A stretch of 64,000 nt of DNA. Source: Longimicrobiales bacterium (GTDB taxonomy: Bacteria > Gemmatimonadota > Gemmatimonadetes > Longimicrobiales > Gaopeijiaceae). A program made the position numbers and the translations under genes. Positions 8,280-43,658 of this stretch are shown here, piece by piece. Position 1 is the first letter of the stretch, and the number at the start of each line of letters is the position of its first letter. The stretch is from contig CBDFMQ010000002.1 of assembly GCA_965249725.1 (NCBI GenBank), positions 128,001-192,000 of the forward strand, read 5' to 3'. The notes under the pieces are model-generated. The model was not told where the DNA came from. It was given only the letters and a program-made list of their open reading frames with translations, and did no database searches.

Positions 8280-9599
8280 ATGATGAAGCCGACTGTTCTG
8301 ACATCTGCCGGCGCCCTGTTGGGCTTGGCGGCTCTCCTCACTGCGAGCCCGGTGCTGGCTCAGGAGGACGCGGAGAAGCGGGGGAGCGACAATGTCGAAG
8401 TCGTGGCGCACATCCCCCTCGGACCGAGTGTGTCCGACATCGAGGTCGAGCAAGACATGGACCGGCCTTACGCCTATGTGGCGAAACAGGATGGCGGTCT
8501 GGACATCATCGACCTGCACGACCCGTACGATGCGAAGGTGCTCCACCGTTGGCGCTTCGACGACATGGACATCCATGTCGGATCCGCCGGCAAGGATATC
8601 AAGATCTTCGAGTACAACGGCCGGAACTACGTCGTCCATTCTGTTCAGTTCCGTCAGGGCGGACCGGATGCGGACCTCGGAGCCGTCGTTTTCGACGCCA
8701 CGGGCCTACCCGACGTCTCGACCTGGAAAGAAGTGGGCCGCATCCAGGGTCCCGGTGAGCTCGGTGGCTTCCACAACATCTACGTCTATCGGCACAGCAA
8801 CGGCCGCCCGCTCCTCATCTCCACCGTGTCGGGACCGTTCGCCAATGTCTACGACCTTGGATATGTCGTGGACGGACGGCTCGACGAAGCGCTCGTCGCG
8901 CAGATTCCCGTTCCGGCGAATGACTCCGATCGGCCCGGACCCCGCGGGTACCACGACTTCTACGCCGGATTCCATCCGGACAGTGAGCAGGACCGCTTCT
9001 ACGGGGGCGGCACCGGAGGCTTCTACGTCTATAACATCACCGACCTGGAGAACCCGGAGCTCATGGTGACCCTCACGGGCGTCAGCGGAGTGGATTGGGG
9101 CCATACCTTCACTCCGTCGCCCGACGGTCGTTATGTCGTGGGTGAGGTGGAGTACCAGTACGCTCCGCTTCGGATCTTCGACCTCAAGCCGGCCCTGGAC
9201 GGTGAGGTCTCGAACATTCGCCGCCCGATCTCAGCCTGGACCGCCAACTGGGAGAACCTGTCGCACAACCACGAAGTGCGTTGGCCCTTCGTCTTCGTGT
9301 CGGGCTATCTGGACGGCATGCAGGTCTTCACGCTGTCCGATCCCAAGCATCCGAAGACGGTCGCCCACTACGACACGTACCTCGAGCCTGAGGACAACCG
9401 TGGCATGGGCGGCAACTGGGGTGTCGACGTGAGGAACGCCGACGGCCTGATCGTGTCGTCGGACTCGCAGACCGGCTTCTGGGCCTTCAAGATGGACGGG
9501 TTCAACGGCTGGAACGGACTCGACTGGGGTCAGCCCAACATCTCGAGTGCTCAGGACTGGGTGAACGGCCCGGCCTACCAGGCGGTGACTCGCTACTAG
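8280..9599 (+). CDS. Secreted LVIVD-repeat-type His-rich beta-propeller protein
   Basis: Signal peptide; GLDIIDL and GMQVFTL repeats; FHN, YHD, GHT, HNHE motifs; WGVDVRNADGLIV. Paralog of the 34.5-40.3 kb array. Confidence 0.75.
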   Translation: MMKPTVLTSAGALLGLAALLTASPVLAQEDAEKRGSDNVEVVAHIPLGPSVSDIEVEQDMDRPYAYVAKQDGGLDIIDLHDPYDAKVLHRWRFDDMDIHVGSAGKDIKIFEYNGRNYVVHSVQFRQGGPDADLGAVVFDATGLPDVSTWKEVGRIQGPGELGGFHNIYVYRHSNGRPLLISTVSGPFANVYDLGYVVDGRLDEALVAQIPVPANDSDRPGPRGYHDFYAGFHPDSEQDRFYGGGTGGFYVYNITDLENPELMVTLTGVSGVDWGHTFTPSPDGRYVVGEVEYQYAPLRIFDLKPALDGEVSNIRRPISAWTANWENLSHNHEVRWPFVFVSGYLDGMQVFTLSDPKHPKTVAHYDTYLEPEDNRGMGGNWGVDVRNADGLIVSSDSQTGFWAFKMDGFNGWNGLDWGQPNISSAQDWVNGPAYQAVTRY

Positions 9600-11750
9600 A
9601 TGGTCGGTGCTCTCCTACTTGCAGTACTGAGCCTTCCGCAGGCCGGGGGTGTCGCGCAGACGCCTCCGGCTGCGGAGCTCTGCCCGAGGGACGCGAACGC
9701 GTGGACCGTGCCGGCGTGGAGCGCGTATTGTACGGACCTGATCCCGGTCCCGACGCTGCGCTATGCGTACGGGATTCTCGAGATGCGGGGCCTGCCGACC
9801 CCGTTCGATGTCTCGGTCACCAGGGACGGTAACTACGTCTATGAGCTGACCGCGCTGGTGGACGGCCTTCCCGCGCCCGAGACGCTCGGCGACTACAGCG
9901 TGTACGTGGCCTGGGCCACCACGCTCCTGCTCGGAAACCCGATCAATTTGGGCGTCGTGACAAACGGTCGGGTCGATCTCGGGACGCTGGACTACGATCA
10001 GTTCCGGATTCTGATCAGTGCTGAGCCGAGCGCCGACGTGCCGGATCGCACGGGTCCCCTGGTGCTTCGAGGCACGTCCCCGAGCGCCCAGGCGCAGCAG
10101 CACCAGGACGCGCTCATGTTCCCGCCGTCCGACATGGACCACTCGGGCAGCGGCTGGAGGGCTCCGCCCATGGCGCCGGCGTCACCGATGATGCCGGGGC
10201 TCATGGGGTTGGTACCGGTCGTGGAGCCTTTCCTGCCGGGGTTGGAGGCCGAGGCGGGTCCCGTGCCGCGCGTCGAGCCCCCGGGGTCGGTGACCCTTGC
10301 CGATGGGGACACGCTTCGGCTCGAGGCCGCTCCGGTCCGGGCGAGCATTGGCGGCCATGACCTCGGCCTGTACGGATTCAACGGGCAGAGCCCGGGGCCC
10401 GTGCTCAGCGTCCAACAGGGTTCCGAGATCGTCGTGGCGTTCACCAACTCCACGGCTCTATCCACGACGCTGAGATGGCACGGAGTGCGCTTGGAAAACC
10501 GCTTCGACGGTGTTCCCGGACTCACCCAGCGGCCGGTGCGCCCGGGCGACACGTATACCGCGCATGTCCGCTTTCCGGACCCTGGCGTTTTCTGGTACCA
10601 CCCGCATCAGCGGGGTGACGCTGCCCAGGATCTGGGACTCTATGGCGCGATCCTCGTGGAGCCCGACGATGGGGACTACTACGCTGATGTGAACCGCGAA
10701 GAGGTGCTGATCCTCGACGATCTCCTGATCGACGACCAGGGCCTCATCCCGTGGGGGAGCGAAACACCCACGCATGCCTTGATGGGGCGCTTCGGCACGC
10801 AGGTCCTGTTGAACGGTCGGACGGACCACGAGATCTCGGTCGACCGTGGCGACGTGGCGCGGTTCTTCTTGGTGAACGCCTCCAACACGCGGGTCTTCAA
10901 CATGGCCTTGGGCGGGGCACCGATGAAGGTGGTCGCAGGGGACCTGGGCCGGTTCGAACGCGAGGAATGGGTGGAGAGCGTGGTGATCGCCCCGGGCCAA
11001 CGCTACGTCATCGAGGCCCGCTTCGAGGACCCGGGCGACGTCGCCATCACGAACCGGGTGAGCGCTCTCAACCACTATGCGGGTGTCTTCTACGCCAAGG
11101 TGGATACGCTGGGCGTCGTGCGCGTGGGGACCGAACAGACCACGCGGGATTACTCCCGGTCGTTCTCTCGGCTGAGGGAGAATGACGATGTCATCGGAGA
11201 CATCGACCGATTCCGCCCGTACTTCGACAAGCCGGTCGACCACAACCTGGAGCTGCGGTTGGTGGTCCAGGATCTAGCCCCCGTGCTCGACATGGCGATC
11301 CGAAGCTCCACGTATTCGCCGCCCATGGAGTGGAATGACGCCATGCCGGTGATGAACTGGCTTACGACCGGGCTCACCGTGAGGTGGGTCCTCAACGAGC
11401 CGACGCCCGAGGACGACCCGGGCGCCGACGACGAGGACCTCGCCCCGGCGACGGGCTGGCGCTTCACCCAGGGGGACGTGGCGAAGATCCGCATCGTGAA
11501 CCCGGGAAGCGGCGTCCACCCGATGAACCATCCGATGCATCTGCACGGTCAGAGGTTCCTGGTGATCGAGCGTAACGGAGTGAGAACGACCAACCTCGTG
11601 TGGAAGGACACGGCCGTGATCCCGGTGGGGTCCACGGTGGATCTCCTGGTGGACATGTCCAACCCGGGGAACTGGATGCTCAACTGTCAGATTCCCGAGC
11701 ACATGGGCTCGGGAATGGCGATTTCGTTTGCGGTGGATCCCGCGCCTTAG
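9600..11750 (+). CDS. Multicopper oxidase family protein with a degenerate trinuclear copper site
   Basis: GFNGQSPGP, RWHG, FWYHPH, HPMHLHG, WMLNCQIPEHMGSGM; extra N-terminal domain; signal peptide. Confidence 0.88.
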   Translation: MVGALLLAVLSLPQAGGVAQTPPAAELCPRDANAWTVPAWSAYCTDLIPVPTLRYAYGILEMRGLPTPFDVSVTRDGNYVYELTALVDGLPAPETLGDYSVYVAWATTLLLGNPINLGVVTNGRVDLGTLDYDQFRILISAEPSADVPDRTGPLVLRGTSPSAQAQQHQDALMFPPSDMDHSGSGWRAPPMAPASPMMPGLMGLVPVVEPFLPGLEAEAGPVPRVEPPGSVTLADGDTLRLEAAPVRASIGGHDLGLYGFNGQSPGPVLSVQQGSEIVVAFTNSTALSTTLRWHGVRLENRFDGVPGLTQRPVRPGDTYTAHVRFPDPGVFWYHPHQRGDAAQDLGLYGAILVEPDDGDYYADVNREEVLILDDLLIDDQGLIPWGSETPTHALMGRFGTQVLLNGRTDHEISVDRGDVARFFLVNASNTRVFNMALGGAPMKVVAGDLGRFEREEWVESVVIAPGQRYVIEARFEDPGDVAITNRVSALNHYAGVFYAKVDTLGVVRVGTEQTTRDYSRSFSRLRENDDVIGDIDRFRPYFDKPVDHNLELRLVVQDLAPVLDMAIRSSTYSPPMEWNDAMPVMNWLTTGLTVRWVLNEPTPEDDPGADDEDLAPATGWRFTQGDVAKIRIVNPGSGVHPMNHPMHLHGQRFLVIERNGVRTTNLVWKDTAVIPVGSTVDLLVDMSNPGNWMLNCQIPEHMGSGMAISFAVDPAP

Positions 11751-18039: not shown

Positions 18040-18509
18040 TGACTGGCACAACCCACCCTACCTCCAATGAAATCCTTCTTCCCCATGAGACGGGGCGAGG
18101 TGGCGACTCTGCTCTCCCTCGTCTTGTTCGCTGCCTTCTCGTTCATCCCGGCCTGGCGAACCATCGAGCTGGGCGGCATGGCCGTATTCGGTTGGCTCAT
18201 GGCCGCTCTGATGGTGGTTTCTCCGGCGATTGCACTGTTTACCTTTCTGCGCGGGAGCGGTGGCACGTCGGGTGACTGGCACAACCCACCCTACCTCCAA
18301 TGAAATCCTTCTTCCCCATGAGACGGGGCGAGGTGGCGACTCTGCTCTCCCTCGTCTTGTTCGCTGCCTTCTCGTTCATCCCGGCCTGGCGAACCATCGA
18401 GCTGGGCGGCATGGCCGTATTCGGTTGGCTCATGGCCGCTCTGATGGTGGTTTCTCCGGCGATTGCACTGTTTACCTTTCTGCGCGGGAGCGGTGGCACG
18501 TCGGGTGAC
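18040..18509. repeat. 233-bp tandem direct duplication
   Basis: 18040-18272 is repeated at 18273-18505 with no differences seen; TGAC occurs at all three boundaries. Confidence 0.95.
18067..18303 (+). CDS. Duplicated small membrane protein, copy 1 (altered C-terminus)
   Basis: Identical to 18300..18584 up to ...SGD, then WHNPPYLQ from the duplication junction. Confidence 0.5.
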   Translation: MKSFFPMRRGEVATLLSLVLFAAFSFIPAWRTIELGGMAVFGWLMAALMVVSPAIALFTFLRGSGGTSGDWHNPPYLQ

Positions 18510-18584
18510 GCCGCTCGGGCCGCGGATTTGGCCGATCACGCCGGGTCGGCCGAAGGTGAGACGTCCGGCAGGAGCACCCCCTGA
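18300..18584 (+). CDS. Small two-TM protein, probable symporter accessory subunit
   Basis: Two hydrophobic helices; TGATG coupling to the sodium:solute symporter. Confidence 0.7.
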   Translation: MKSFFPMRRGEVATLLSLVLFAAFSFIPAWRTIELGGMAVFGWLMAALMVVSPAIALFTFLRGSGGTSGDAARAADLADHAGSAEGETSGRSTP

Positions 18585-20011
18585 TGCTCCTCGAACGCAT
18601 CCTGGTCGGCATCTATCTGTTCGGCTGCGTCGGCATCGGCATCGTGGCCTCGAAAAAGGTCATGGGCTCCCGCGACGAGTACTGGGTCGCAGGCCGGCGC
18701 ATAGGAACCGTGGTCAACTCGATGGCGATCATGGCGGCCTTGGCGAGCGGCGGCTCGATCATCGGGGTCATGGGACTCGCCTACTCCCAGGGCATTCCCG
18801 CAACCCTCGCCCTCTTCGCGGGGGCTGTCCTCGGCTTTCCCCTGGCTTCGATCCTGGTGGCGAAGCCGCTCCGGAACTTCGGCAAGTACACGATCACCGA
18901 TTTCCTGAGCTATCGGTATCCGCACGCCATCGTCCGTTACCTAGTGCCGATCCTCATCGTGATCGCCTTCACGATCTACATCGTGGCTCAGCTCAAGGCC
19001 GCGGGCATCACGTCCGAGGCCCTGCTGGGAATCCCCTACGACGTCTCACTGACGTTGGCCACGGTGGTGTTCATCATTTACGTGTCCTTCGGAGGGATGA
19101 TCGCCATCACCTGGACGGATGTGATCCAAGGGATGCTCATGGTGATCGTGGTGGTCGGTACGGCGCTGGTTCTCATCTGGAGGGTGGGGTCACCCTTCGA
19201 GATCATGAGCCAGGCGACGGCCGTCGCGCCCGAACTGGGGGAGGTGGTGCACCGACCGGTATCGAGCTACCTCGGCTAATTCCTGATCTGGGCCACGGCC
19301 ATCCCGGTCATCCCCCATATCGTCATGCGGGTCTACACGGCGAAGGATGCCGAGAGCGCCCGTCTGTCGCTGAACCTGGCCATGCTGGTCTACAGCGTCG
19401 TGATCCTGGCTGCGGTGTTGGCGATCGTGCCCGTCGGCAGGATCGACTTTCCGGGGCTACAGGACGCCGATCAGCTCTTCCTGCGCGTCATGGAGACCCA
19501 GTTTCCGCCCTTGATCCGCGGGATCGCGGTTGCCGCCGTGCTGGCCGCGGTCATGTCGACCACGGACGCGCTGTTGTTGGCGTGTAGTTCGGCCATCGCG
19601 CACGACATCTTGGGTGGATTCCTGCGTGAACGGGCCAGTGAGCGGACGCTGAGCTTCGTCCGGATCGGCTCCACCTGGGTCATCGGCATTGTGGCGTTGT
19701 TCTGGGCGTTCTCGCCTCCCGAGCTCATCAGCCAGTTCTATACGGCGGGTGTCGGCGTGCTCAGCTCGAGCCTGTTCGTGCCGACCGTCGCAGGGCTCTG
19801 GTGGAAGAAGGCCAACCTGGTCGGTGGGGTGGGTGCGGTGGTGTGCGGCGCGGGGGTCTACGTGCTGGTCCAGCTGGGTGTCATCGACATCGGGTTGGCT
19901 CCCGTGGTGGTCGCGTTGTTTGCCAGTGCCGCCGCGATGTTGTTGGGGGGGCTGTTCGGCCCGTCAGAGGCCCCTGAGATGATCGATCAGATCGAGGCGC
20001 TGCACCGGTAG
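18584..20011 (+). pseudogene. Sodium:solute symporter (SSS, ActP/PutP-like) interrupted by an in-frame TAA
   Basis: YWVAGR, GKYTITDFL, GGMIAITWTDVIQG, PHIVMRVY, AAVMST. Both halves share one frame, with TAA at 19277-19279. Confidence 0.85.
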
Positions 20012-32324: not shown

Positions 32325-32630
32325 TCAGCCGCTCGTCTCCGCCGGTTCGCGCACGGTCCACCCCATCGCCTCACACACCTCAGCCGGTGTCACGCCCAGG
32401 TCGCGAAAGCGGCGAGCGATGCGTTCGGCCAATTCTCGATGGACATCCCCGACATCGCCGGAGGGTGGGGCCTTCTTCGCTACGATGCGTTTGCCTCGAG
32501 ATTCGAACACGAGGGTGTCGCCCACGTGCAGTCCGAGGCGGTCCCGGAGTTCCTCGGGCAGCGTCAACTGCCCGTCTTCGTCTATGTTCGCAGAGAACTG
32601 GACCATGTTTTTGCTCCTCGTCATCGTCAT
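32325..32630 (-). CDS. AbrB/MazE/SpoVT DNA-binding domain protein
   Basis: IDEDGQLTLPEELRDRLGLHVGD. Start at 32630 or 32606. Confidence 0.75.
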   Translation of the reverse strand: MTMTRSKNMVQFSANIDEDGQLTLPEELRDRLGLHVGDTLVFESRGKRIVAKKAPPSGDVGDVHRELAERIARRFRDLGVTPAEVCEAMGWTVREPAETSG

Positions 32631-32842: not shown

Positions 32843-34450
32843 ATGGGGGAGAGACGCGTCGGCGCCTGGGTCGCCCTGATCCTCTGCCTGTCGTGGCTGG
32901 TGGAGGGGTGCGCCACACCGGGTAGCGCCGCGCCATCTCGCGCGGTCGATGTGGTGGAGCTCACCACAGCGCAGATCCAGGCCGGGCTCGCTGCCGGCGA
33001 TTTCACGTCGCTGGATCTCACCCGCGCGTTTCTCGGTCGCATCGACCTGTATGAGGAGCACTACAATGCCCTGATCTCGATCAACCCAGACGCCCTCGAC
33101 ATCGCCAAGAACCTGGACAAGGAGTACCGAGAGCGGGGCCCGCGCGGACCCCTTCACGGGGTGCCGGTGGTCATCAAGGACAACCTCGACTACGGCGGGC
33201 TCGTTACGACCGCGGGTTTTTCCGGATTCAGCGAGGCTACCGGCGGTGTGGACATGATTCCGGGGGACGACGCGGCGGTTGTGGAGCGACTGCGCGAGGC
33301 CGGTGCAATCGTGCTCGGAAAGACGAACATGCCCGACTTTGCCGGCCATGGTACGCGAACGAACAGCTCGGTGGCCGGGGTCACTCTCAACCCGTACAAC
33401 GTGGACAAGGCACCCGGCGGATCGAGCGGCGGTACGGCCACGGCGGTCAACGCGAGCTTCGCAGTCCTGGGCCTCGGGACGGAAACAGGGGGGTCGATAC
33501 AGAACCCTGCGGCGGCCCAGGCCCTGGTCGGCGTGAAACCGACCTTCGGGTTGGTGCCCCTCGAGGGTGTGGTGCCGATCAATGCGACCTACATCGATGT
33601 GGTCGGGCCGCTCGCCAAGACGGTCTACGATGCGGCGATCACTTTGGACGTTCTGGCTGGGCCGACGACGGAGGACCTCGCGACGTATTCGGCCGTCGAG
33701 CACATCCCGGAGGAGGGGTATGCCGCGGCCCTGAGCACTCGGGCCTTGGAGGGCAAGCGGTTCGGATTGGTCGGATCCGGTTGGCGCGAGGAATTCCTGC
33801 CTCTGGCACCTGAGACCGAGCAGGCCTACCGGCAGGCGATCGACATTCTCGAGGAGCAGGGAGCCCGGGCGGTGGACGACCCGTTCCGGGGCCGGGGCTT
33901 CATCGAGCTATATGACGAAAGGCCCCGGGTGTCCGTGGGCTCCCACGACATGTTCGTGTACTTCCAGGGGCTCGGTGACGACGCGGCGTTCCACAGCGTC
34001 GACGAGTGGGAAGCCCTGACCGGAGAGGAGTTCCGCGGCGGGAGGGCAAACCGTCCCCCGGTCAGGCCCAGCGCCACGGAGGAGGGCGACGCCTTTCAGG
34101 CCTGGCGGCTTCAGATTCGGGAGCGGTTCCGCAGCGTGCTCGAGGAGTTCGATCTCGACGGGCTTTTCTTTCCACAGGCGGGGTCCCCGATCCGCGATCT
34201 CGTGGAGGATCCGGAGCGCCCGGACTACAACCCGAACAACCACCCGGAGCTTCCCAGCAACATCACCAACGAGATCGGCCTGCCGGTCGTAACCGTGCCC
34301 TTCAGCTATTACGACGACGGCACCCCGTTCGTCATCGCCTTCATCGGGGACACCTGGACGGAGGCCGACCTGCTGGGGTTCGCGTACGATTTCGAGCAGG
34401 CTACCCAAGCGCGGATACCGCCAGAAGTGATGACGAGCACCGGGCGCTGA
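32843..34450 (+). CDS. Amidase signature family lipoprotein
   Basis: GPLHGVPVVIKD, GKTN, PGGSSGG, GTETGGSI; RBS AGGAGG. Confidence 0.93.
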   Translation: MGERRVGAWVALILCLSWLVEGCATPGSAAPSRAVDVVELTTAQIQAGLAAGDFTSLDLTRAFLGRIDLYEEHYNALISINPDALDIAKNLDKEYRERGPRGPLHGVPVVIKDNLDYGGLVTTAGFSGFSEATGGVDMIPGDDAAVVERLREAGAIVLGKTNMPDFAGHGTRTNSSVAGVTLNPYNVDKAPGGSSGGTATAVNASFAVLGLGTETGGSIQNPAAAQALVGVKPTFGLVPLEGVVPINATYIDVVGPLAKTVYDAAITLDVLAGPTTEDLATYSAVEHIPEEGYAAALSTRALEGKRFGLVGSGWREEFLPLAPETEQAYRQAIDILEEQGARAVDDPFRGRGFIELYDERPRVSVGSHDMFVYFQGLGDDAAFHSVDEWEALTGEEFRGGRANRPPVRPSATEEGDAFQAWRLQIRERFRSVLEEFDLDGLFFPQAGSPIRDLVEDPERPDYNPNNHPELPSNITNEIGLPVVTVPFSYYDDGTPFVIAFIGDTWTEADLLGFAYDFEQATQARIPPEVMTSTGR

Positions 34451-34551: not shown

Positions 34552-35970
34552 ATGCGTCCGCGTACACTGCCGATTCTGCTCGCCCTCACCATGGCGGCTG
34601 TGGCCGTCGCCTTTACGTCGCCCGACGCGTTGGCCCAGGTGACTTGCTTCGGTGACCCGACGTGTGTCCAGCCCGTAACCGGCTATCCAGTGGGCCGGCC
34701 GGGTACGCCGAACATCGAGGTCGTCTCTCACCAGCCGCTGCCCGGCGCGCCCTTCAGCCACGCCGACATCGAGATGGAGCAGGAGATGGACCGGCCCTTC
34801 GCGTATATCGCTCAGCGCTTCGGTGCTTCGGGCTTCTATGCGATCAGCCTCGAGGACGAGGCGCATCCGGAGGTCCTATACCGCTACACGGTGGACGATC
34901 CGGATCTGCACCTCGGCACCGGCTGCGTAGACATCAAGTATGCCAAGGCGGAGGGCCGGTACTACGTCATCGTGTCCTGTCAGTTCGGGCAGGGTGGGCC
35001 GGACTTCGACTTGGGTGCGATGATCTTCGACGTGACCGGGCTGCCGGACGCTTCGACCGTGAGGAAGGTCGCGGAACTCAGGCTGCCGGATCTGCCTGGC
35101 GGCTTCCACAACGTCTACACGTACCGTCACTCGAACGGCCGATCGCTGTTGCTGGCGACCACCCAGTCGAAAGACGCGTTCATCTACGACATCGCCCAGC
35201 TCGCCGATGGCAACCTCGATCCGGTGTCGGCCATTTCCGTGCCTCAGCCTTCGGAGTCGCGCAGCCGTCAGTGGCACGACATGTACGTCGGCTTTCTTCC
35301 CGACGCCGGTCAGGACCGCTTCTACGGAGCCGGTACGGGAGGATTCCATGTGTATGACATGACGGACGTGGAGAATCCACGGCTCCTGACGTCGGTCACC
35401 GGCGTGCCGGGCGTCGAGAACGGACACACCTTCACCCCCACTCCCGACGGCCGTTACGGACTCGGTATGCCCGAGCCTACGTACCAGCACTCGCCCGTCC
35501 GCTTCTTCGACTTGAGACCGGAGGGGTCGGAGGGCCAGACGCCCAACATCGTGAGGGGGTCCGGAGTCGGGGCCTGGATCGCCAAGTTCGGAGGCTCGAC
35601 CCACAACCATGAGATCCGTTGGCCCTATGTCTTCATTTCGGCCCAGGACGACGGACTCCAGATCGTGAACATGGCCGATCCCACACACCCGTTCACAGTC
35701 GGCTACTACAACACTCGCATCGGGCCGATGCTGTACGGCGGTGGAGACCGCCCGAGCCAGGCTACCACGGGGAACATCTATGACGGTGCCTGGGGCATCG
35801 ACATCCGGGACGAGGACGGGCTCATTGTCGTGAGCGACTTCACTACGGGATTCTGGGCCTTCAGGCTCGACGGCTTCGAGGGCTGGAACGGTAATGACTG
35901 GAACATGCCCGACGTTTCGAGCGCCCAGCATTGGGATGAGAGCCCCGATCAACCACAGGAAATCAGGTAG
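34552..35970 (+). CDS. Secreted LVIVD-type His-rich beta-propeller, array copy 1
   Basis: RBS AGGAG; signal peptide, then QVTCFGDPTC; FHN, WHD, GHT, HNHE, DDGLQIVNM. Confidence 0.8.
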   Translation: MRPRTLPILLALTMAAVAVAFTSPDALAQVTCFGDPTCVQPVTGYPVGRPGTPNIEVVSHQPLPGAPFSHADIEMEQEMDRPFAYIAQRFGASGFYAISLEDEAHPEVLYRYTVDDPDLHLGTGCVDIKYAKAEGRYYVIVSCQFGQGGPDFDLGAMIFDVTGLPDASTVRKVAELRLPDLPGGFHNVYTYRHSNGRSLLLATTQSKDAFIYDIAQLADGNLDPVSAISVPQPSESRSRQWHDMYVGFLPDAGQDRFYGAGTGGFHVYDMTDVENPRLLTSVTGVPGVENGHTFTPTPDGRYGLGMPEPTYQHSPVRFFDLRPEGSEGQTPNIVRGSGVGAWIAKFGGSTHNHEIRWPYVFISAQDDGLQIVNMADPTHPFTVGYYNTRIGPMLYGGGDRPSQATTGNIYDGAWGIDIRDEDGLIVVSDFTTGFWAFRLDGFEGWNGNDWNMPDVSSAQHWDESPDQPQEIR

Positions 35971-35978
35971 GAGACATC

Positions 35979-37439
35979 ATGCGTAAACCAAACCTGACGG
36001 TCCCCCATCCGCTCGCGCCGGCCGCATTCGCGCTCGGACTGGCCACTCTCGGACTGGTCACTCTGGGACTTGGGCTGACTGCGGCGCCCGCTTCGGCGCA
36101 GGTCACGTGCTTCGGCGACCCGACGTGTATCCAGCCCGAGACGGGCTATCCGGTGGGCCGACCCGGCACGTCGAACATCGAGGTGGTCTCGCACCAGCCT
36201 CTGCCCGGCATCCGCTTCAGCCATGCCGATATCGAGATCGAACAGGAGATGGATCGTCCTTATGCGTATATAGCGCAGCGCTTCGGTGCCTCAGGCTTCT
36301 ATGCCATCAGTCTCGAGGACGAGAACCACCCCGAGGTACTCTACCGCTACACCGTCGACGATCCCGATCTGCACCTCGGGAGCGGATGCGTCGACGTCAA
36401 ATACGCGAAGGCCGAAGGGCGGTATTTCGTGATCGTGTCCTGTCAGTTCGGACAGGGCGGGCCGGACTTCGACTTGGGTGCCATGGTCTTCGACGTGACG
36501 GGGCTCCCGGACGCCTCGACCATCCGGAAGGTCGCGGATCTCCGTACTCCGGGGATGGGAGGCGGCTTCCACAACATCTTCACATACCGCCACTCGAACG
36601 GCCGGACCCTCTTGCTCGCGACCACGCAGTCCGAGGATGCGTACATCTATGATCTCGCCCAGATCGCGGCGGGAGACCTGGATCCGGTGTCGGAGATCGC
36701 CGTCCCGCAGCCCAGAGCTAGTCGTACGCGTCAGTGGCACGACATGTACGTCGGCTTTCTGCCCGACGCGGGTCAGGACCGCTTCTACGGAGCGGGCACG
36801 GGCGGCTTCCACGTGTTCGACATGACCGACGTTGAGAACCCTCGCCTGCTAACGTCCGTGACGGGCATTCCGGGTGTGACGGACGGTCATACGTTCACGC
36901 CAACGCCCGACGGGCGGTACGGACTCGGCATGCCCGAGCCCACCTACCAGAACTCGCCGATCCGCTTCTTCGATCTGCAGCCGGAGGGGTCCGAGGGACA
37001 GACGCCCAATGTCGTCCGTGGCTCCGGGGTCGGAGCCTGGATCGCGAAGTTCGGAGGCGCGACCCACAACCACGAGGTGCGCTGGCCCTACGTCTTTATT
37101 TCGGCTCAGGACGACGGGCTGCAGATCGTCAACATGGCCGATCCGACGCACCCGTTCACGGTTGGTTACTACAACACCCGTGAGGGCCCGATGCTCTACG
37201 GTGGAGAAGGCGCGCTGATGACGGGCAACAACACGACGGGCAACATCTACAACGGTGCGTGGGGCGTGGACATCCGGAACGCGGACGGCCTCATCGTCGT
37301 GAGCGATTTTAATACGGGCTTCTGGGCGTTCCGACTGGACGGTTTCCAGGGATGGAACGGGAACGACTGGAACATGCCGAACATCTCGAGTGCCCAGATG
37401 TGGGACGAGACTCCAGACCAACCTCAGCAGATCCGCTAG
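35979..37439 (+). CDS. Secreted LVIVD-type His-rich beta-propeller, array copy 2
   Basis: Same motifs as copy 1; RBS overlaps the previous TAG (TAGGAG). Confidence 0.8.
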   Translation: MRKPNLTVPHPLAPAAFALGLATLGLVTLGLGLTAAPASAQVTCFGDPTCIQPETGYPVGRPGTSNIEVVSHQPLPGIRFSHADIEIEQEMDRPYAYIAQRFGASGFYAISLEDENHPEVLYRYTVDDPDLHLGSGCVDVKYAKAEGRYFVIVSCQFGQGGPDFDLGAMVFDVTGLPDASTIRKVADLRTPGMGGGFHNIFTYRHSNGRTLLLATTQSEDAYIYDLAQIAAGDLDPVSEIAVPQPRASRTRQWHDMYVGFLPDAGQDRFYGAGTGGFHVFDMTDVENPRLLTSVTGIPGVTDGHTFTPTPDGRYGLGMPEPTYQNSPIRFFDLQPEGSEGQTPNVVRGSGVGAWIAKFGGATHNHEVRWPYVFISAQDDGLQIVNMADPTHPFTVGYYNTREGPMLYGGEGALMTGNNTTGNIYNGAWGVDIRNADGLIVVSDFNTGFWAFRLDGFQGWNGNDWNMPNISSAQMWDETPDQPQQIR

Positions 37440-37447
37440 GAGATATC

Positions 37448-38887
37448 ATGCGTCAACCAATTCAGTCGGTTCTGTATCCGGTCCTCCGCGCTGCCACGCT
37501 CGCGTGCGTAGCCGTAGCACTCTCGACCTCCAGCGGGATGGCCCAGGTGGTCTGCTTCGGCGACCCGACGTGTGTCCAGCCGGAGACGGGCTACGCCATC
37601 GGACAGCCGGGTACGCCCAACATCGAGGTCGTCTCACATCGGCCCCTGCCGGGAGAGCGATTCAGCCACGCCGACATCGAGATCGAGCAGGAGATGGACC
37701 GGCCCTTCGTCTACATCGCTCAGCGCCACGGCGCATCGGGCTTCTATGCGCTGAGCATCGAGGATGAGGAGCACCCTGAGGTTCTCTATCGCTACGTCGT
37801 GGACGACCCCGATCTCCATCTCGGCAGCGGATGTGTGGACGTCAAGTATGCCAAGGCCGCCGGCCGGTACTACGTGATCCTCTCCTGCGAGTTCAGCCAG
37901 GCGGGACCGGACAGCGACCTCGGGGCGATGGTCTTCGATGTCACGGGACTCCCTGATGCGTCGACCGTACGCAAGGTCGCGGAGCTCAGGGTCCCCGGGA
38001 GGCCTGGGGGCTTCCACAACATCTTCACCTACCTTCACTCGAACGGCCGACCCCTCTTGGTCGCGACCACCAAGGAGGCGGAGGCGTGGGTGTACGACCT
38101 CGAGCAGGTCGGCGAGGGTGTCACGGAGCCCGTCTCGGCGATCTCCGTCCCGAATCCGACGGCAACCAACTACCAGACGTGGCACGACATCTACCTCGGC
38201 TTCCTTCCGGACGCAGGCCAGGATCGCTTCTATGGGGCTGGGGGAGGGGGCTTCCACGTGTACGATGTCACGGACCTCGAGAACCCGCGGCTCGTCACCT
38301 CGGTTACGGGGATTCCGGGGGTTACCGATGGACATACGTTCACACCCGGGCCCGCCGGCCGCTTCGCGATCGGCATGCCGGTCCCGACCTATCAGCATTC
38401 GCCGCTCCGTTTCTTCGACCTGCGCCCTGACGGGTCGGAGGGCCAGGCGCCGAACATCGTGAGGGGCTCCGGGGTCGGCGCTTGGATCGCGAAGTTCGGA
38501 GGAGCGACCCACAACCACGAGATACGCTGGCCCTACGTGTTCATCTCCGCCCAGGACGATGGGCTCCAGATCGTCAACATGGCGGACCCCACGAGGCCCT
38601 TCACGATGGGATACTACCACACGCGTGGGACCCCGGCGCTTTTCGCCGGCGAGGGTGCTCTGGACGCAGGTACGGCGAACACGGGCAACATCTACAACGG
38701 TGCCTGGGGGGTCGACGTGCGGAACGCCGACGGACTGATCGTGGTGAGTGACTTCAACACCGGGTTCTGGGCGTTCCGGATGGAGGGCTTCCAGGGCTGG
38801 AACGGAAACGACTGGAACATGCCGAACATCTCGAGCGCGCAGGACTGGAACTTGGAGCCCGATGAACAGACGCAGGAGATGCGGTAG
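37448..38887 (+). CDS. Secreted LVIVD-type His-rich beta-propeller, array copy 3 (most divergent)
   Basis: QVVCFGDPTC and the same His motifs; TAGGAG RBS. Confidence 0.8.
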   Translation: MRQPIQSVLYPVLRAATLACVAVALSTSSGMAQVVCFGDPTCVQPETGYAIGQPGTPNIEVVSHRPLPGERFSHADIEIEQEMDRPFVYIAQRHGASGFYALSIEDEEHPEVLYRYVVDDPDLHLGSGCVDVKYAKAAGRYYVILSCEFSQAGPDSDLGAMVFDVTGLPDASTVRKVAELRVPGRPGGFHNIFTYLHSNGRPLLVATTKEAEAWVYDLEQVGEGVTEPVSAISVPNPTATNYQTWHDIYLGFLPDAGQDRFYGAGGGGFHVYDVTDLENPRLVTSVTGIPGVTDGHTFTPGPAGRFAIGMPVPTYQHSPLRFFDLRPDGSEGQAPNIVRGSGVGAWIAKFGGATHNHEIRWPYVFISAQDDGLQIVNMADPTRPFTMGYYHTRGTPALFAGEGALDAGTANTGNIYNGAWGVDVRNADGLIVVSDFNTGFWAFRMEGFQGWNGNDWNMPNISSAQDWNLEPDEQTQEMR

Positions 38888-38906
38888 CGATCGGAGAGGA
38901 GCGACA

Positions 38907-40343
38907 ATGAGAAGGCTGACCTCAAAGATGGGTCGCGCCGTGCTCGGCGCGCTTTTGCCAGCGACACTGTTGGCTTGCCTCATTCCCGACAGCGGAAAGG
39001 CCCAGGTGACCTGCTTCGGCGATCCGACCTGCATTCAGCCGGAGACCGGGTACGCCGTGGGGCGACCCGGGACACCCAACATCGAGGTGGTCTCGCATCA
39101 ACCGCTCCCCGGGGTGCGCTTCAGCCACGCCGACATCGAGATCGAACAGGAGATGGACCGGCCTTATGCGTACATCGCGCATCGGCTCGGCGCATCGGGC
39201 TTCTACGCCATCGGCCTCGAAGACGAGGAGCACCCGGAAGTGCTCTATCGGTACGTCATCGACGAGCCCGATCTGCATCTGGGGAGCGGATGCGTGGACA
39301 TCAAGTATGCCAAGGCCGAGGGACGGTACTATGTGATCGTCTCGTGCCAGTTCGGCCAGGGAGGGCCCGACTTCGATCTGGGGGCGATGGTCTTCGACGT
39401 CACGGGGCTCCCCGACGCGTCGACGGTCCGCAAGGTGGCGGAGCTCAGAACTCCCGACATGGGGGGCGGCTTCCACAACATCTTCACGTATCGGCACTCG
39501 AACGGCCGCACGCTTCTGCTCGCGACGACCCAGTCCGAAGACGCCTTCATCTACGACCTGGCTCAGGTCGCGGCAGGCAACCTCGATCCGGTTTCCGAGA
39601 TCGCCGTCCCGCAGCCTTCGGCGGCGCGTACTCGCCAGTGGCACGACATGTACGTGGGCTTTCTCCCGGATGCCGGGCAGGACCGCTTCTACGGCGCGGG
39701 CACTGGGGGCTTCCACGTCTTCGACATGACGGACGTGGAGAACCCGAGGCTCCTCACTTCCGTGACCGGCGTCCCGGGCGTGGAGAACGGTCACACCTTT
39801 ACGCCCACGCCCGATGGCAGGTACGGACTCGGTATGCCCGAGCCCACCTATCAGCATTCGCCGATCCGTTTCTTCGACCTGCGACCCGAAGGCTCCGAGG
39901 GACAGACGCCCAACGTCGTGAGGGGCTCCGGGGTCGGAGCCTGGATCGCCAAGTTCGGAGGCGCGAGCCACAACCATGAGTTGCGCTGGCCTTACGCTTT
40001 CATCTCGGCGCAGGACGACGGGCTCCAGATCGTCAACATGGCGGATCCCACGCACCCCTTCACAGTCGGCTATTACAACACCCGCGAGGGCCCGATGCTC
40101 TTCGGTGGCCAAGGTGCGCTGATGACCGGCAACACCACCACGGGCAACATCTACAACGGCGCCTGGGGCGTGGACATCCGCAACGCGGATGGCCTGATTG
40201 TGGTGAGCGACCTGAACACCGGCTTCTGGGCGTTCCGACTGGACGGTTTCGAAGGCTGGAACGGCAACGATTGGAACATGCCGAACATCTCGAGCGCGCA
40301 GACGTGGGATCAGAGTCCGGATCAGCCGCAGCAGATCAGGTAG
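38907..40343 (+). CDS. Secreted LVIVD-type His-rich beta-propeller, array copy 4
   Basis: RBS GAGGAG; QVTCFGDPTC and the same motifs. Confidence 0.8.
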   Translation: MRRLTSKMGRAVLGALLPATLLACLIPDSGKAQVTCFGDPTCIQPETGYAVGRPGTPNIEVVSHQPLPGVRFSHADIEIEQEMDRPYAYIAHRLGASGFYAIGLEDEEHPEVLYRYVIDEPDLHLGSGCVDIKYAKAEGRYYVIVSCQFGQGGPDFDLGAMVFDVTGLPDASTVRKVAELRTPDMGGGFHNIFTYRHSNGRTLLLATTQSEDAFIYDLAQVAAGNLDPVSEIAVPQPSAARTRQWHDMYVGFLPDAGQDRFYGAGTGGFHVFDMTDVENPRLLTSVTGVPGVENGHTFTPTPDGRYGLGMPEPTYQHSPIRFFDLRPEGSEGQTPNVVRGSGVGAWIAKFGGASHNHELRWPYAFISAQDDGLQIVNMADPTHPFTVGYYNTREGPMLFGGQGALMTGNTTTGNIYNGAWGVDIRNADGLIVVSDLNTGFWAFRLDGFEGWNGNDWNMPNISSAQTWDQSPDQPQQIR

Positions 40344-40483: not shown

Positions 40484-41014
40484 ATGTTGCTCTACGGGTC
40501 CAAAGAGCTCGCGGCGAGCTTTCGCACCGTGAGAGGGAACACGCTGGCGGCGGCGGCCGACCTTCCCGCCGACAAGTACGACTTCCGACCCGCTCCGGAC
40601 TGCCGCAACGTCGAGAAGCTGCTGACACACATCGCGCTGGCGTACCGCTTCCAGCATCAGATTCATGGCGTCGAGAAGCAGTCCAACCTGGAGGGGTTCG
40701 ACTTCCCCGCATTGATGGCGAAGCTCGGGGCGGAAGAGGCGAAGCCACGCACCAAGGACGAGGTCATCGACCTGCTCGAGAAGGAGGGCGAGGTCTGGGC
40801 CGAGTTCCTGGACGGGGTTTCCGACGACTTCCTGAATCAGACTGTGAGTTTCGGGCCTGGCGCTCCGCCCAAGAGCCGACTCGAGATGCTGATGTCGGTG
40901 AAGGAGCACGAGATGCACCATCGTGGTCAGGTCATGGTGGTCCAGCGGATGCTGGGCATCGTGCCTCACCTGACGAGGGAGCGGGAGGCACGCATGGCCC
41001 AGGCGGGGGGATGA
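40484..41014 (+). CDS. DinB family protein
   Basis: YDFRP, LLTHIA, EHEMHHRGQ..V..RMLGIVP His triad. Confidence 0.9.
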   Translation: MLLYGSKELAASFRTVRGNTLAAAADLPADKYDFRPAPDCRNVEKLLTHIALAYRFQHQIHGVEKQSNLEGFDFPALMAKLGAEEAKPRTKDEVIDLLEKEGEVWAEFLDGVSDDFLNQTVSFGPGAPPKSRLEMLMSVKEHEMHHRGQVMVVQRMLGIVPHLTREREARMAQAGG

Positions 41015-41865
41015 CGGGGCCCGTGTGTCGCCTTCAGAACCGCCTCGCCCGGTTGGCACCATTGGCCATCGCCATCAGCCTGGTGGCCGTCCCCATACCG
41101 CTCTCGGCCACCTGGTCCGTCATCGCGGTGGACGCCCGTACCGGCCGTGTGGTCATCGCATCAGCCACGTGCGTGCCTCAGGACCGCTTCGCGGGATTCC
41201 CGGCCAAGGGCCTCATGGACATCCAGGCGATCGTCGTGCCGGGCGTCGGTGTGGCGGCGGCCCAGGCTGGTGTGGACAACACCAGGGAGAACCAGCGGCT
41301 TATCTACCGTGAGCTTAAGAACGGCACGCACCCCGATGGCATCCTCGAAATGTTGAAGCAGGACGAGAACATCGAACGACGTCAGTTCGGCATCGTCGAC
41401 ATGATGGGCCATTGCGCCGGCTTCTCGGGCAGCGGAAACGGTGCGGCATCGTTGTCCGTTCAGGACACCGTGCCCGGCACGGAGATCTACTTCTCGATCC
41501 AAGGCAACATCCTGGCATCCGACGACGTGGTACACACGGCGGTGGAGGCGTTCAAAGCCGAGGGCGGAACGCTCACGGATCGTGTGATGGCTGCAATGGA
41601 CGCCGCCGACGCAGCCGGCGGGGACGTCCGCTGCACCTGCGAGAGCGAGCCCGTGCTAGAGGCTCCGTGCGAGGCCAAGACCGCGCACGTGGCGTACATC
41701 CTGGCCGCCGATCCTGACGACCCCGAAGGGGAGTCGTTCAACGACGGGCAGTACGCGCTCTACCTGAGCGTTACGGACAACGACATCATGCCGGAGGAGA
41801 ATGCGAATCCGGTGGTGACGCTCAGGATGCGGTACGATGCGTGGAAGGCGGGGCAGGGGGGCTAG
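41011..41865 (+). CDS. DUF1028 (Ntn-hydrolase-like) secreted protein
   Basis: Signal peptide, then TWSVIAVD; RQFGIVD, QGNIL, AGGDVRC; ATGA overlap. Confidence 0.85.
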   Translation: MTGPVCRLQNRLARLAPLAIAISLVAVPIPLSATWSVIAVDARTGRVVIASATCVPQDRFAGFPAKGLMDIQAIVVPGVGVAAAQAGVDNTRENQRLIYRELKNGTHPDGILEMLKQDENIERRQFGIVDMMGHCAGFSGSGNGAASLSVQDTVPGTEIYFSIQGNILASDDVVHTAVEAFKAEGGTLTDRVMAAMDAADAAGGDVRCTCESEPVLEAPCEAKTAHVAYILAADPDDPEGESFNDGQYALYLSVTDNDIMPEENANPVVTLRMRYDAWKAGQGG

Positions 41866-41897: not shown

Positions 41898-43658
41898 CTA
41901 GCGTGACCCGCCGGCCTTCGCCTCCGCTTCGACGTCGGCCACCCACTCGTCGAGGAGCCCCCGAAGCCGCCGGGCCACGTCCTGTCTGATGTTCGACAGG
42001 TCGTTCCGCTCCCCCGGGTCGTCTTGGACGTTGAACACGAACGAGGCCCGTCCCCAGTCGACGTCCTGTATCAGTAGCTTCCAATCGCCGCTCCGGACGG
42101 CTCGATCGATGCCCCCGGTGGCCCGCCAGAACAGGGTGCGCTCCACCTCGGGTGCCTCTCCGGTCAGGATGGGCAGCAGGTTGATACCGTCGAGATCCAG
42201 GTCGGTGGGCACGGACGCACCGGTGGCCGCCAGAATGGTCGCCGTAACGTCCATTGTGATGCCCACCTGCCCGGTCACCGGCCCTGCTGGAATCACACCC
42301 GGCCAGGCCATGATGGCCGGCACACGAATCCCCCCCTCACAGACGGTCCCCTTACGGTTGAAAAGCGGTGCGTTGCGCGAAAGCCACTCGCCGCCGTTGT
42401 CGTTGGTGAAGACCACCAGCGTGTTCTCGGTCAGCCCGGCATCGGCGATCGCCTGCACGATGGCCCCGATGCCCTGGTCGGCGCGCTCGAGCATGGCGAT
42501 GTAGTCCTCCCGCGTGCTCGTATCCTCGCTGTGCGGCTGCAGGTGGGCCGCATTCCGTCGGGCCACCGACAGCATGTCGGGCGGTTGGTACGGCCAGTGC
42601 GCCGCGTTGTACTGCACGGAGAGGAAGAACGGTCGGCCGGCGTTCTGATGGATGAAGTCGACGGAGCGGTCGGTGATCAGGTCGGTGAGGTAGCCGTCCG
42701 CATCGATCCGCTCCTCGTTCTCCCACAGGTCTGATGCACCCTGACCGTTGGTGTGTTGGTAGTAGTCGACGTAGCCCGACTTGAAGCCGTAGAAATAGTC
42801 GAAGCCGTGCGCACCAGGACTCTGATTCCGCTTGTAGCCGAGGTGCCACTTCCCGACGAGACCCGTGGCGTATCCGCTGTTCTTGAGGAGCTGCGGCAGC
42901 GTGCGCCCGTTCGCCTCAAGCCCTCGCGCGTTCAGCACCAGCCCTCCCCAGAACGACTCGCGGGCGCTGCCCATCGGTGCTTCCATCCCCACCCTCTGTT
43001 GGTACCGACCCGTGACGAAGCCCGCGCGGGTCGGCGTACACGCAGGGGCGTTGGCGTAGAAGTCGGTGAAGCGCACTCCGTCGTTCGCGAGCTGATCGAG
43101 GTTGGGGGTTCGGATGTCGGGTCCCCCGTAGCTGCCGAGGTCTCCGTAGCCGACGTCGTCGGTCATGATGAAGACAACGTTGGGGCGGGTTTGGGCGTGC
43201 AGGAGTGATGGGCTCGCGAGGACCGTCAGGAAGAACAGAGCCGTGACGCTTAGAACGCGTGGCCCCCCCCAGACATCCGAGGCGTCCGAGGGGACATTAC
43301 CGCGATTCGTGATCACCTCCTGGATCGCATCCATGAGATCTTGCGGATCGACGGGCTTTTCCAGCGCCGCCACGGCTCCGTACTGAATCGCAAAGGGAAG
43401 CTTGCTGGAGGCAGCACCGGAGACGGCGATGATGGCGGCGTTCGGGTGCTTTCCGAGCAACTCTTGAATGAGTCGGAGCCCGTCCACATTGGGCATCTGG
43501 AGATCCGTGACCACGACGTCGATGTCGTGCTCCTCGTAAACTTTCAGCGCGGCCTCGCCATCACCGGCAAAGTAGGGCTTGTGACCGGCGTCCTCGACCA
43601 CGGTGCTCTCGAGGAACCGGTCCATCTCCTCGTCGTCGACGATCAGCACGCTTGCCAT
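41898..43658 (-). CDS. Response-regulator receiver domain fused in frame to a sulfatase
   Basis: VLIVDDE, TDLQMP, VSG, KP; then an internal signal-like segment, PNVVFIMTDD, CTPTRA (CxPxR), GKWHLG, NDNG. Confidence 0.85.
   Translation of the reverse strand: MASVLIVDDEEMDRFLESTVVEDAGHKPYFAGDGEAALKVYEEHDIDVVVTDLQMPNVDGLRLIQELLGKHPNAAIIAVSGAASSKLPFAIQYGAVAALEKPVDPQDLMDAIQEVITNRGNVPSDASDVWGGPRVLSVTALFFLTVLASPSLLHAQTRPNVVFIMTDDVGYGDLGSYGGPDIRTPNLDQLANDGVRFTDFYANAPACTPTRAGFVTGRYQQRVGMEAPMGSARESFWGGLVLNARGLEANGRTLPQLLKNSGYATGLVGKWHLGYKRNQSPGAHGFDYFYGFKSGYVDYYQHTNGQGASDLWENEERIDADGYLTDLITDRSVDFIHQNAGRPFFLSVQYNAAHWPYQPPDMLSVARRNAAHLQPHSEDTSTREDYIAMLERADQGIGAIVQAIADAGLTENTLVVFTNDNGGEWLSRNAPLFNRKGTVCEGGIRVPAIMAWPGVIPAGPVTGQVGITMDVTATILAATGASVPTDLDLDGINLLPILTGEAPEVERTLFWRATGGIDRAVRSGDWKLLIQDVDWGRASFVFNVQDDPGERNDLSNIRQDVARRLRGLLDEWVADVEAEAKAGGSR

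Follow-up and report, generated by a model that had tools for sequence, protein, structure and literature searches.

We examined a 64,000-nucleotide window of a Longimicrobiales bacterium (GenBank assembly GCA_965249725.1, contig CBDFMQ010000002.1, positions 128,001 to 192,000 of the forward strand), in which four tandem genes at 34552–40343 encode predicted beta-propeller proteins of one family. Positions below are those of the window, unless another contig of the genome (C1, C3) is named. A preliminary description had put the array forward as the best candidate for an undescribed system. By itself it is not: the family has 45 copies at 21 loci in this genome, and the array is one opening onto a large uncharacterised family of putative metallo-propellers.

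The four genes are intact open reading frames (ORFs) on the forward strand, in the length range first claimed for them, with spacers of 8, 8 and 19 bp. Genes 2 and 3 have as ribosome-binding site (RBS) an AGGAG that overlaps the TAG of the previous gene, as had been noticed. Judged by eye, the N-termini are signal-peptide-like and mutually unrelated, and end in A-x-A or G-x-A before QV(T/V)CFGDPTC, the common opening of the similar mature regions. Genes 2, 3 and 4 are 83, 75 and 83% identical to gene 1 over the whole protein, and 86, 76 and 87% identical to mature gene 1. All the His motifs named in the preliminary description are present, as are its two pairs of Cys and two variable loops. 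"His-rich" suits the proteins only modestly (2.7–3.2% His in genes 1–4 against 2.0% genome-wide). The SHAD motif is conserved in the array but not family-wide, since its H70 is specific to a subclade (11 of the 45 genome copies).

Table 1. Features of the window. X is an orphan protein and the Cys subclade comprises the family members with the CFGDPTC motif (see text); residue numbers are those of gene 1.
Feature	Position	Strand	Remarks
Fifth propeller family member	8280..9599	+	about 51% identical; outside the Cys subclade
X fused to multicopper-oxidase-like protein	9600..11750	+	oxidase part with RWH and NCQ; type-1 ligands kept
Amidase-signature enzyme	32843..34450	+	Pfam; 101 bp upstream of the array, no terminator-like site between
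Propeller gene 1	34552..35970	+	472 amino acids (aa); predicted cleavage after residue 28
Gene 1, ring His codons	H186 at 35107; H242 at 35275; H292 at 35425; H351 at 35602		
Gene 1, further codons	H120 at 34909; M306 at 35467; E308 at 35473		
Gene 1, Cys pairs			residues 32/38 and 125/143
Gene 1, variable loop 232-240	35245..35271	+	joins blade 3 D to blade 4 A and directly precedes WHD; on the top face, judging from strand order
Gene 1, hypervariable loop 390-407	35719..35772	+	joins blade 6 D to blade 7 A; on the top face, judging from strand order; low predicted local distance difference test (pLDDT) score
Propeller gene 2	35979..37439	+	486 aa; sister of gene 4; RBS overlaps gene 1 stop
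Propeller gene 3	37448..38887	+	479 aa; most divergent; own orthologues at two related loci
Propeller gene 4	38907..40343	+	478 aa
DinB-family gene	40484..41014	+	Pfam
DUF1028 gene	41011..41865	+	Pfam

The array genes are real, old tandem paralogues under purifying selection, as the preliminary description had argued. Their age follows from a pairwise synonymous divergence (dS) of 0.98–1.27 and from shared DNA runs of only 24–32 bp, the longest identical stretches between any two of the genes. The nonsynonymous divergence (dN) is 0.05–0.16, and dN/dS, one of the checks first suggested, came to 0.045–0.143 overall. The guanine-cytosine content is level throughout the region. The junctions from the amidase to the DinB gene are each bridged by assembled contigs (4 of 24 listed sequencing runs, from 4 studies), those between array genes by contigs from at least two runs (runs X6 and X11 for genes 3–4); no contig covers the full array. 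Recent gene conversion or misassembly as the origin of the array is ruled out by the short shared runs together with the bridging contigs. One contig of run X11 (depth 2) omits 831 bp in frame within gene 4 (38981–39811), a strain variant or an artefact. A promoter scan found 0 sites (1.5 expected), and terminator-like sites numbered 3 (4.1 expected), none on the forward strand.

Variation among the four genes had been described as clustered in loops. The ratio of nonsynonymous to synonymous differences per site (pN/pS) rises from 0.12 in strands through 0.15 in bottom loops to 0.31 in top loops, and reaches 0.59–0.60 in loops 232–240 and 390–407 against 0.14 for the rest. These two top-face loops are under relaxed constraint. 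That the variable loops line the mouth of the propeller is a trend, as the difference between top and bottom is not significant (p=0.13, permutation with whole loops as units) and two bottom loops vary too. No region gave the pN/pS above 1 that positive selection on loops would leave, by a counting method at near-saturated dS.

The AlphaFold model, built from an 80-sequence alignment, has a pLDDT of 90.4 and a predicted template modelling score of 0.91. Its strand list gives seven four-stranded blades, an N-terminal closing strand and a Trp-rich tail, with H186, H242, H292 and H351 at the start of strand A in blades 3–6, respectively. In propeller geometry this position lies on the top face beside the axis, and we call these four residues the ring His. 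H186 is kept in 44 of the 45 genome copies and the other three in all 45; H120 and H193 are also kept in 45, and H353 in 40. The ring His likely hold a metal, as they share the register of the metal site in Sb-PTE, the phosphotriesterase of Sphingobium discussed below. In the model, neighbouring strands have C125 and C143 at their upper ends, where a disulfide could form; the array proteins may be expected to use Sec export and to have two disulfides in all. The proposal of a metal-centred periplasmic family is thus kept in part: an exported seven-bladed propeller is predicted and the His at the metal-site register are invariant, metal binding being suggested by sequence and model.

The 45 members were located with a profile built from the four array genes and together occupy about 63 kb (1.5%) of the genome of 4.16 Mb. 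Zero functional names occur among the 120 homologues listed. The Cys subclade comprises 11 of the 45 and forms a long-branch clade with support of 100; the array genes are 43–54% identical to the non-Cys copies, with ring and tail in common. In a FastTree phylogeny genes 1 and 3 each group with orthologues at related loci and not with each other, and genes 2 and 4 are sisters. The orthologous loci carry 1, 2, 2, 2 or 4 copies, 4 being the number in the array. A fixed hetero-oligomer of the four products, as had been suggested, is unlikely because of this variation. The subclade was found at 15 loci in records named Longimicrobiales, Gemmatimonadota, Gemmatimonadaceae and Acidobacteriota, which possibly overlap the genomes sampled below; the closest relatives are Longimicrobiales (up to 92%). 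Elsewhere in the genome, one family copy (C3:1914328–1915449) has an open frame without the first blade, as a broken gene or a sequence error. Twelve divergent homologues keep the scaffold motifs and lack most or all ring His, possibly as an inactive branch.

Copies across the phylum were counted with the back-translated motif HNxExRWP, which recovers 44 of the 45 copies in this genome, misses diverged copies and gives 0–1 hits per genome in a reversed control. Among 301 phylum genomes, 200 have none, 97 have 1–3 and four have many: this genome (44), G126 (78), G042 (20) and G277 (14). The CFGDPTC motif occurs in 1 of the 301, namely this one. In the two congeneric genomes the counts are 11 and 35, and in the other 38 relatives 0–3. 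Copy number in related genomes had been raised as a check on the array; it shows the array as 4 of 45 copies in a genome whose relatives mostly have 0–3. The low counts are not merely assembly loss, because many low-copy genomes are single contigs. A tree (FastTree, midpoint root) was built from the 45 copies, 20 low-copy genes and, from the other three expanded genomes, 16 of 78, 14 of 20 and 10 of 14 copies. The copies group mostly by genome, with 9 label changes against 36.4 after shuffling. This clustering points to large expansions in the four genomes that were largely separate and span other families of the phylum.

In low-copy genomes, the propeller gene adjoins a multicopper oxidase at 16 of 20 loci and X at 18 of 20. 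This trio is kept across families of the phylum and in records of Rhodothermales/Bacteroidota. The oxidases have Pfam Cu-oxidase domains and Met/His-rich N-termini. X, an orphan protein represented by a 20-sequence set with 19 homologues, is predicted to form a Cu,Zn-SOD/CCS-like barrel with a His/Met/Cys C-terminal tail. The barrel has no conserved His, these being confined to the tail. A PDB sequence search with X gave a sole, repeat-like match. The predicted complex of a low-copy propeller and X, folded without alignments, scored 0.00, which is evidence neither way. This genome has 4 X and 3 oxidases against its 45 propellers. A ten-copy propeller array of a separate clade (C1:682837–699064) ends in X and an oxidase, and a choice-of-anchor-B-like gene with N-terminal repeats converges on that oxidase.

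In this genus RWH and NCQ replace HWH and HCH in the oxidases, so that three His of the trinuclear site are missing and the type-1 ligands are intact. Oxidases of this kind, which include those at 9600–11750 and C1:699813–701450, are under purifying selection. They are predicted from their sequences to be unable to reduce O2. The idea that degeneration of the oxidase accompanied propeller expansion was rejected, for the three other expanded genomes have canonical oxidases.

The trio could be read as a unit that handles copper by means of a chaperone and a cuprous oxidase, and in which the propellers are non-catalytic periplasmic binders of metal or metal chelates that serve copper buffering, storage or the capture of imported complexes. 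The Met/His-rich N-termini of the oxidases, the tail of X and the wide retention of the trio would all fit. Buffering, however, calls for more protein, not for 45 divergent genes with separately conserved orthologue lines. In this genus cuprous oxidation is also predicted to be lost, because the oxidase lacks the three trinuclear-site His. We regard such a role as unlikely.

Metal-free surface or adhesion propellers, diversified to bind host or community molecules, would account for the lineage-specific expansion and the variable loops. LVIVD, the repeat type of these proteins, is treated as a cell-surface repeat in three sources (PMC2447325; bioRxiv 10.1101/2022.05.06.490989; PMC7848895). No anchor, lipobox or repeat extension was seen in the array proteins, however. 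Purifying selection acts on the loops, whose pN/pS does not exceed 0.6, and the invariant His ring and the oxidase operon would be left unexplained. This is the least probable of the explanations considered here.

The surroundings of the array itself are different. No X or oxidase gene stands beside it; both occur elsewhere in the genome. The amidase, DinB and DUF1028 genes named as its flanks are present. The amidase is directly upstream in 4 of 4 orthologous loci, but DinB is a neighbour at 0 of 4 and DUF1028 follows the array at 1 of 4, so the latter two do not stand as partners. Genes near Cys-subclade loci encode amidase, amidohydrolases, esterases and SusC/SusD. All five SusD-like_2 homologues found in the genome by BLAST (for example C3:72258–73700) lie within 7 kb of a propeller gene, and in many cases a gene for an outer-membrane barrel separates the two. 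Three of the five are no more than 3 kb from a propeller cluster, where 0.27 would be expected.

Some further genes of the window were noted. A small AbrB/MazE-like gene (by eye) at 32328–32630 on the reverse strand is divergent from the amidase and is found at one orthologous locus too. At 41901–43658, also on the reverse strand, a response-regulator receiver domain, a segment resembling a signal peptide and a sulfatase are encoded in a single ORF, which may be two genes read as one. At 18067–20008 on the forward strand, two tandem small ORFs with identical N-terminal 38 residues precede an apparently split sodium:solute symporter gene (by eye).

The array proteins may be periplasmic Mn/Zn/Fe hydrolases like Sb-PTE that cleave amide, ester or phosphoester bonds of small substrates. 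They would cooperate with the amidase upstream and with SusC/SusD importers, and a wider range of substrates would be the benefit of having many copies. All four His registers match this nearest solved relative. The position of its E407 is matched in genes 1, 2 and 4 by E308, where strand B of blade 5 ends. The constant upstream amidase, the amidohydrolase or esterase adjoining other loci and the closeness of SusD genes point the same way. Of 29 subclade genes, however, 19 have Glu at this position and 10, gene 3 (Val) among them, have V, A or G, and a 2-residue insertion makes the register uncertain. The position of the bridging E201 (126 here, from a weak 3-bit aligned segment) is V, L, M or K, and Glu in 0 of the 194 sequences parsed of 258. 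Hydrolases are also abundant throughout the window, and the adjacency has no genome-wide control. The link of the wider family with the oxidase and X would be left unexplained. Hydrolysis is a serious possibility and follows closely on the explanation we favour, because the Cys-subclade genes stand among hydrolase genes and no longer in the copper operon.

We tentatively favour the explanation that the array proteins are periplasmic copper-linked oxidising enzymes with diversified small-molecule substrates, because the conserved partners of the family are copper proteins, the bridging ligand of the hydrolase is missing, and a conserved oxidase with type-1 copper alone would be a sensible acceptor of electrons. 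The proteins would be exported via Sec and stabilised by two disulfides, and the four ring His would bind a metal, probably copper. Its identity is suggested by the ancestral trio of propeller, SOD/CCS-fold X and multicopper oxidase. X would load the copper, the propellers would oxidise small organic molecules in the periplasm, and electrons would pass to the type-1 copper of the oxidase, in trans for the array. Each copy would have one activity with a different substrate, probably set by the variable loops.

Several points weigh against copper-linked oxidation. The 20 low-copy loci are kin and not independent, and an oxidase or X lies within 5 kb of Cys-subclade genes at 0 of 15 loci, the neighbours there being the hydrolase and SusC/SusD genes listed above. 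The sole characterised relative is a hydrolase, and its E407 is matched in three of the four genes. The match of X to SOD/CCS is modest (Foldseek E 0.006), and a shared fold, itself predicted, shows no function. The loss of the trinuclear site does not go with expansion: the oxidases of other lineages are canonical, those of three expanded genomes included. The convergence of the His likewise depends on strand register in a predicted model. A universal Met ligand was rejected, as members with K126/E306 or L126/E306 lack Met.

Four His near the axis of a seven-bladed propeller and the lack of a conserved bridging carboxylate would also suit mononuclear iron oxygenases, with the oxidase managing the iron redox state. 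Carotenoid-cleavage dioxygenases have a resembling four-His propeller site. None appears among the sequence matches or the best 50 Foldseek matches listed, however, and the fold and tails of the partners suggest copper. An iron oxygenase is accordingly very improbable. Over all the catalytic readings together, it is probable that the array proteins are metalloenzymes that are exported and use the His ring to act on small molecules.

The fullest form of copper-linked oxidation, which we hold to be rather doubtful, would make the family a class of periplasmic copper oxidoreductases not described before. A chaperone with the SOD/CCS fold would load the His-ring propeller, a multicopper oxidase would serve as electron sink, and the propeller, as the catalytic unit, would have been amplified separately in at least four Gemmatimonadota lineages to substrate-diversified repertoires of 14–78 genes. 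In this genus, the oxidase would be a type-1-only shuttle common in trans to 45 enzymes, and the disulfide-locked subclade a specialised branch.

The present analysis adds the 45-copy census, the phylum distribution and the detachment of the Cys subclade from the copper operon, together with the missing bridging Glu, the predicted SOD/CCS-like fold of X and the genus-limited type-1-only oxidase. The family probably reflects one of the chief activities in the periplasm of these uncultured bacteria, because it takes up so much of the genome here and reaches 78 genes in a relative. With its constant His ring and variable loops it is a natural variant panel, and a route to the native chemistry of LVIVD-type propellers, for which the sole characterised relative found is a pollutant-degrading enzyme. 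If copper/redox chemistry is true, the family and its own chaperone would make up a new copper-enzyme system; if hydrolysis is true, the family would be a large and untapped one of hydrolases.

Among known systems, the array family appears by its sequence to belong to the LVIVD / choice-of-anchor B / Sb-PTE group. PF08309 (LVIVD) gave 15.7–19.9 bits against a gathering score of 20.2 (Pfam E 5e-4 to 1e-2), and TIGR04312 (choice-of-anchor B) 23.5–27.8 bits against a cut-off of 100, a match confined to the last blades (NCBIfam E 1e-6 to 3e-5). Atlas neighbours at 0.97–0.98 are LVIVD-named clusters with no common Pfam, mostly from Gemmatimonadota. The repeat type is shared, and choice-of-anchor B proteins of this genome share the HN/HD/HQ/HN series of the family; their FG-GAP and sorting domains are not in the array proteins. 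Choice-of-anchor-B-like genes with the same His series lie at C1:701471–703903, C3:2530337–2532766 and C3:2839613–2841895, and nine distant LVIVD-type genes were scored in the genome. Literature searches, with subscription journals mostly outside their coverage, found nothing linking LVIVD with Gemmatimonadota, nothing on Longimicrobiales and multicopper oxidases, and nothing on choice-of-anchor B; none of the LVIVD papers listed is by its title about this propeller family.

The trio partners recall CueO/CopA-type oxidases, by their Cu-oxidase domains, and the CCS / Cu,Zn-SOD fold, by the barrel of X. They differ in that the barrel lacks conserved His and the genus oxidase has RWH/NCQ and not HWH/HCH. 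Methanethiol oxidase (SELENBP1/MtoX), nitrous oxide reductase and galactose oxidase are copper propeller enzymes with dedicated accessory genes. They offer an analogy only: a seven-bladed propeller with copper bound by His on its axis, whose gene is accompanied by those for a copper chaperone and a redox partner. MtoX/SELENBP1, NosZ and galactose oxidase are absent from the sequence matches and from the structural matches listed; no cupredoxin domain was found in the array proteins, and the neighbours scanned include no MauG, SCO or Nos genes.

The nearest solved relative is Sb-PTE, the top match of an array protein by sequence and by Foldseek; a second structural search gave generic WD40 propellers, with Sb-PTE not among the best 50 matches listed. 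We take it to be a binuclear Mn enzyme that hydrolyses phosphotriesters, with H258, H317, H389, H475, the bridging E201 and the terminal E407 as metal ligands. Sb-PTE is an exported seven-bladed propeller with disulfides, as the array proteins are predicted to be, and both have His at equal register in four consecutive blades, the first three Sb-PTE residues being aligned and H475 placed by blade order. Sb-PTE is the phosphotriesterase / haloalkylphosphorus hydrolase of Sphingobium sp. TCM1 (PDB 5HRM, 5IOJ) and is mentioned in PMC11656708, PMC13202482, PMC11277490, PMC13611039, PMC9371700 and bioRxiv 10.64898/2026.02.02.703255. The array protein is 14% identical to it and has in addition the invariant H120, H353/E354 and the Trp-rich C-terminal tail. 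The propeller family differs further in its link to a copper oxidase and in its number, up to 78 copies per genome.

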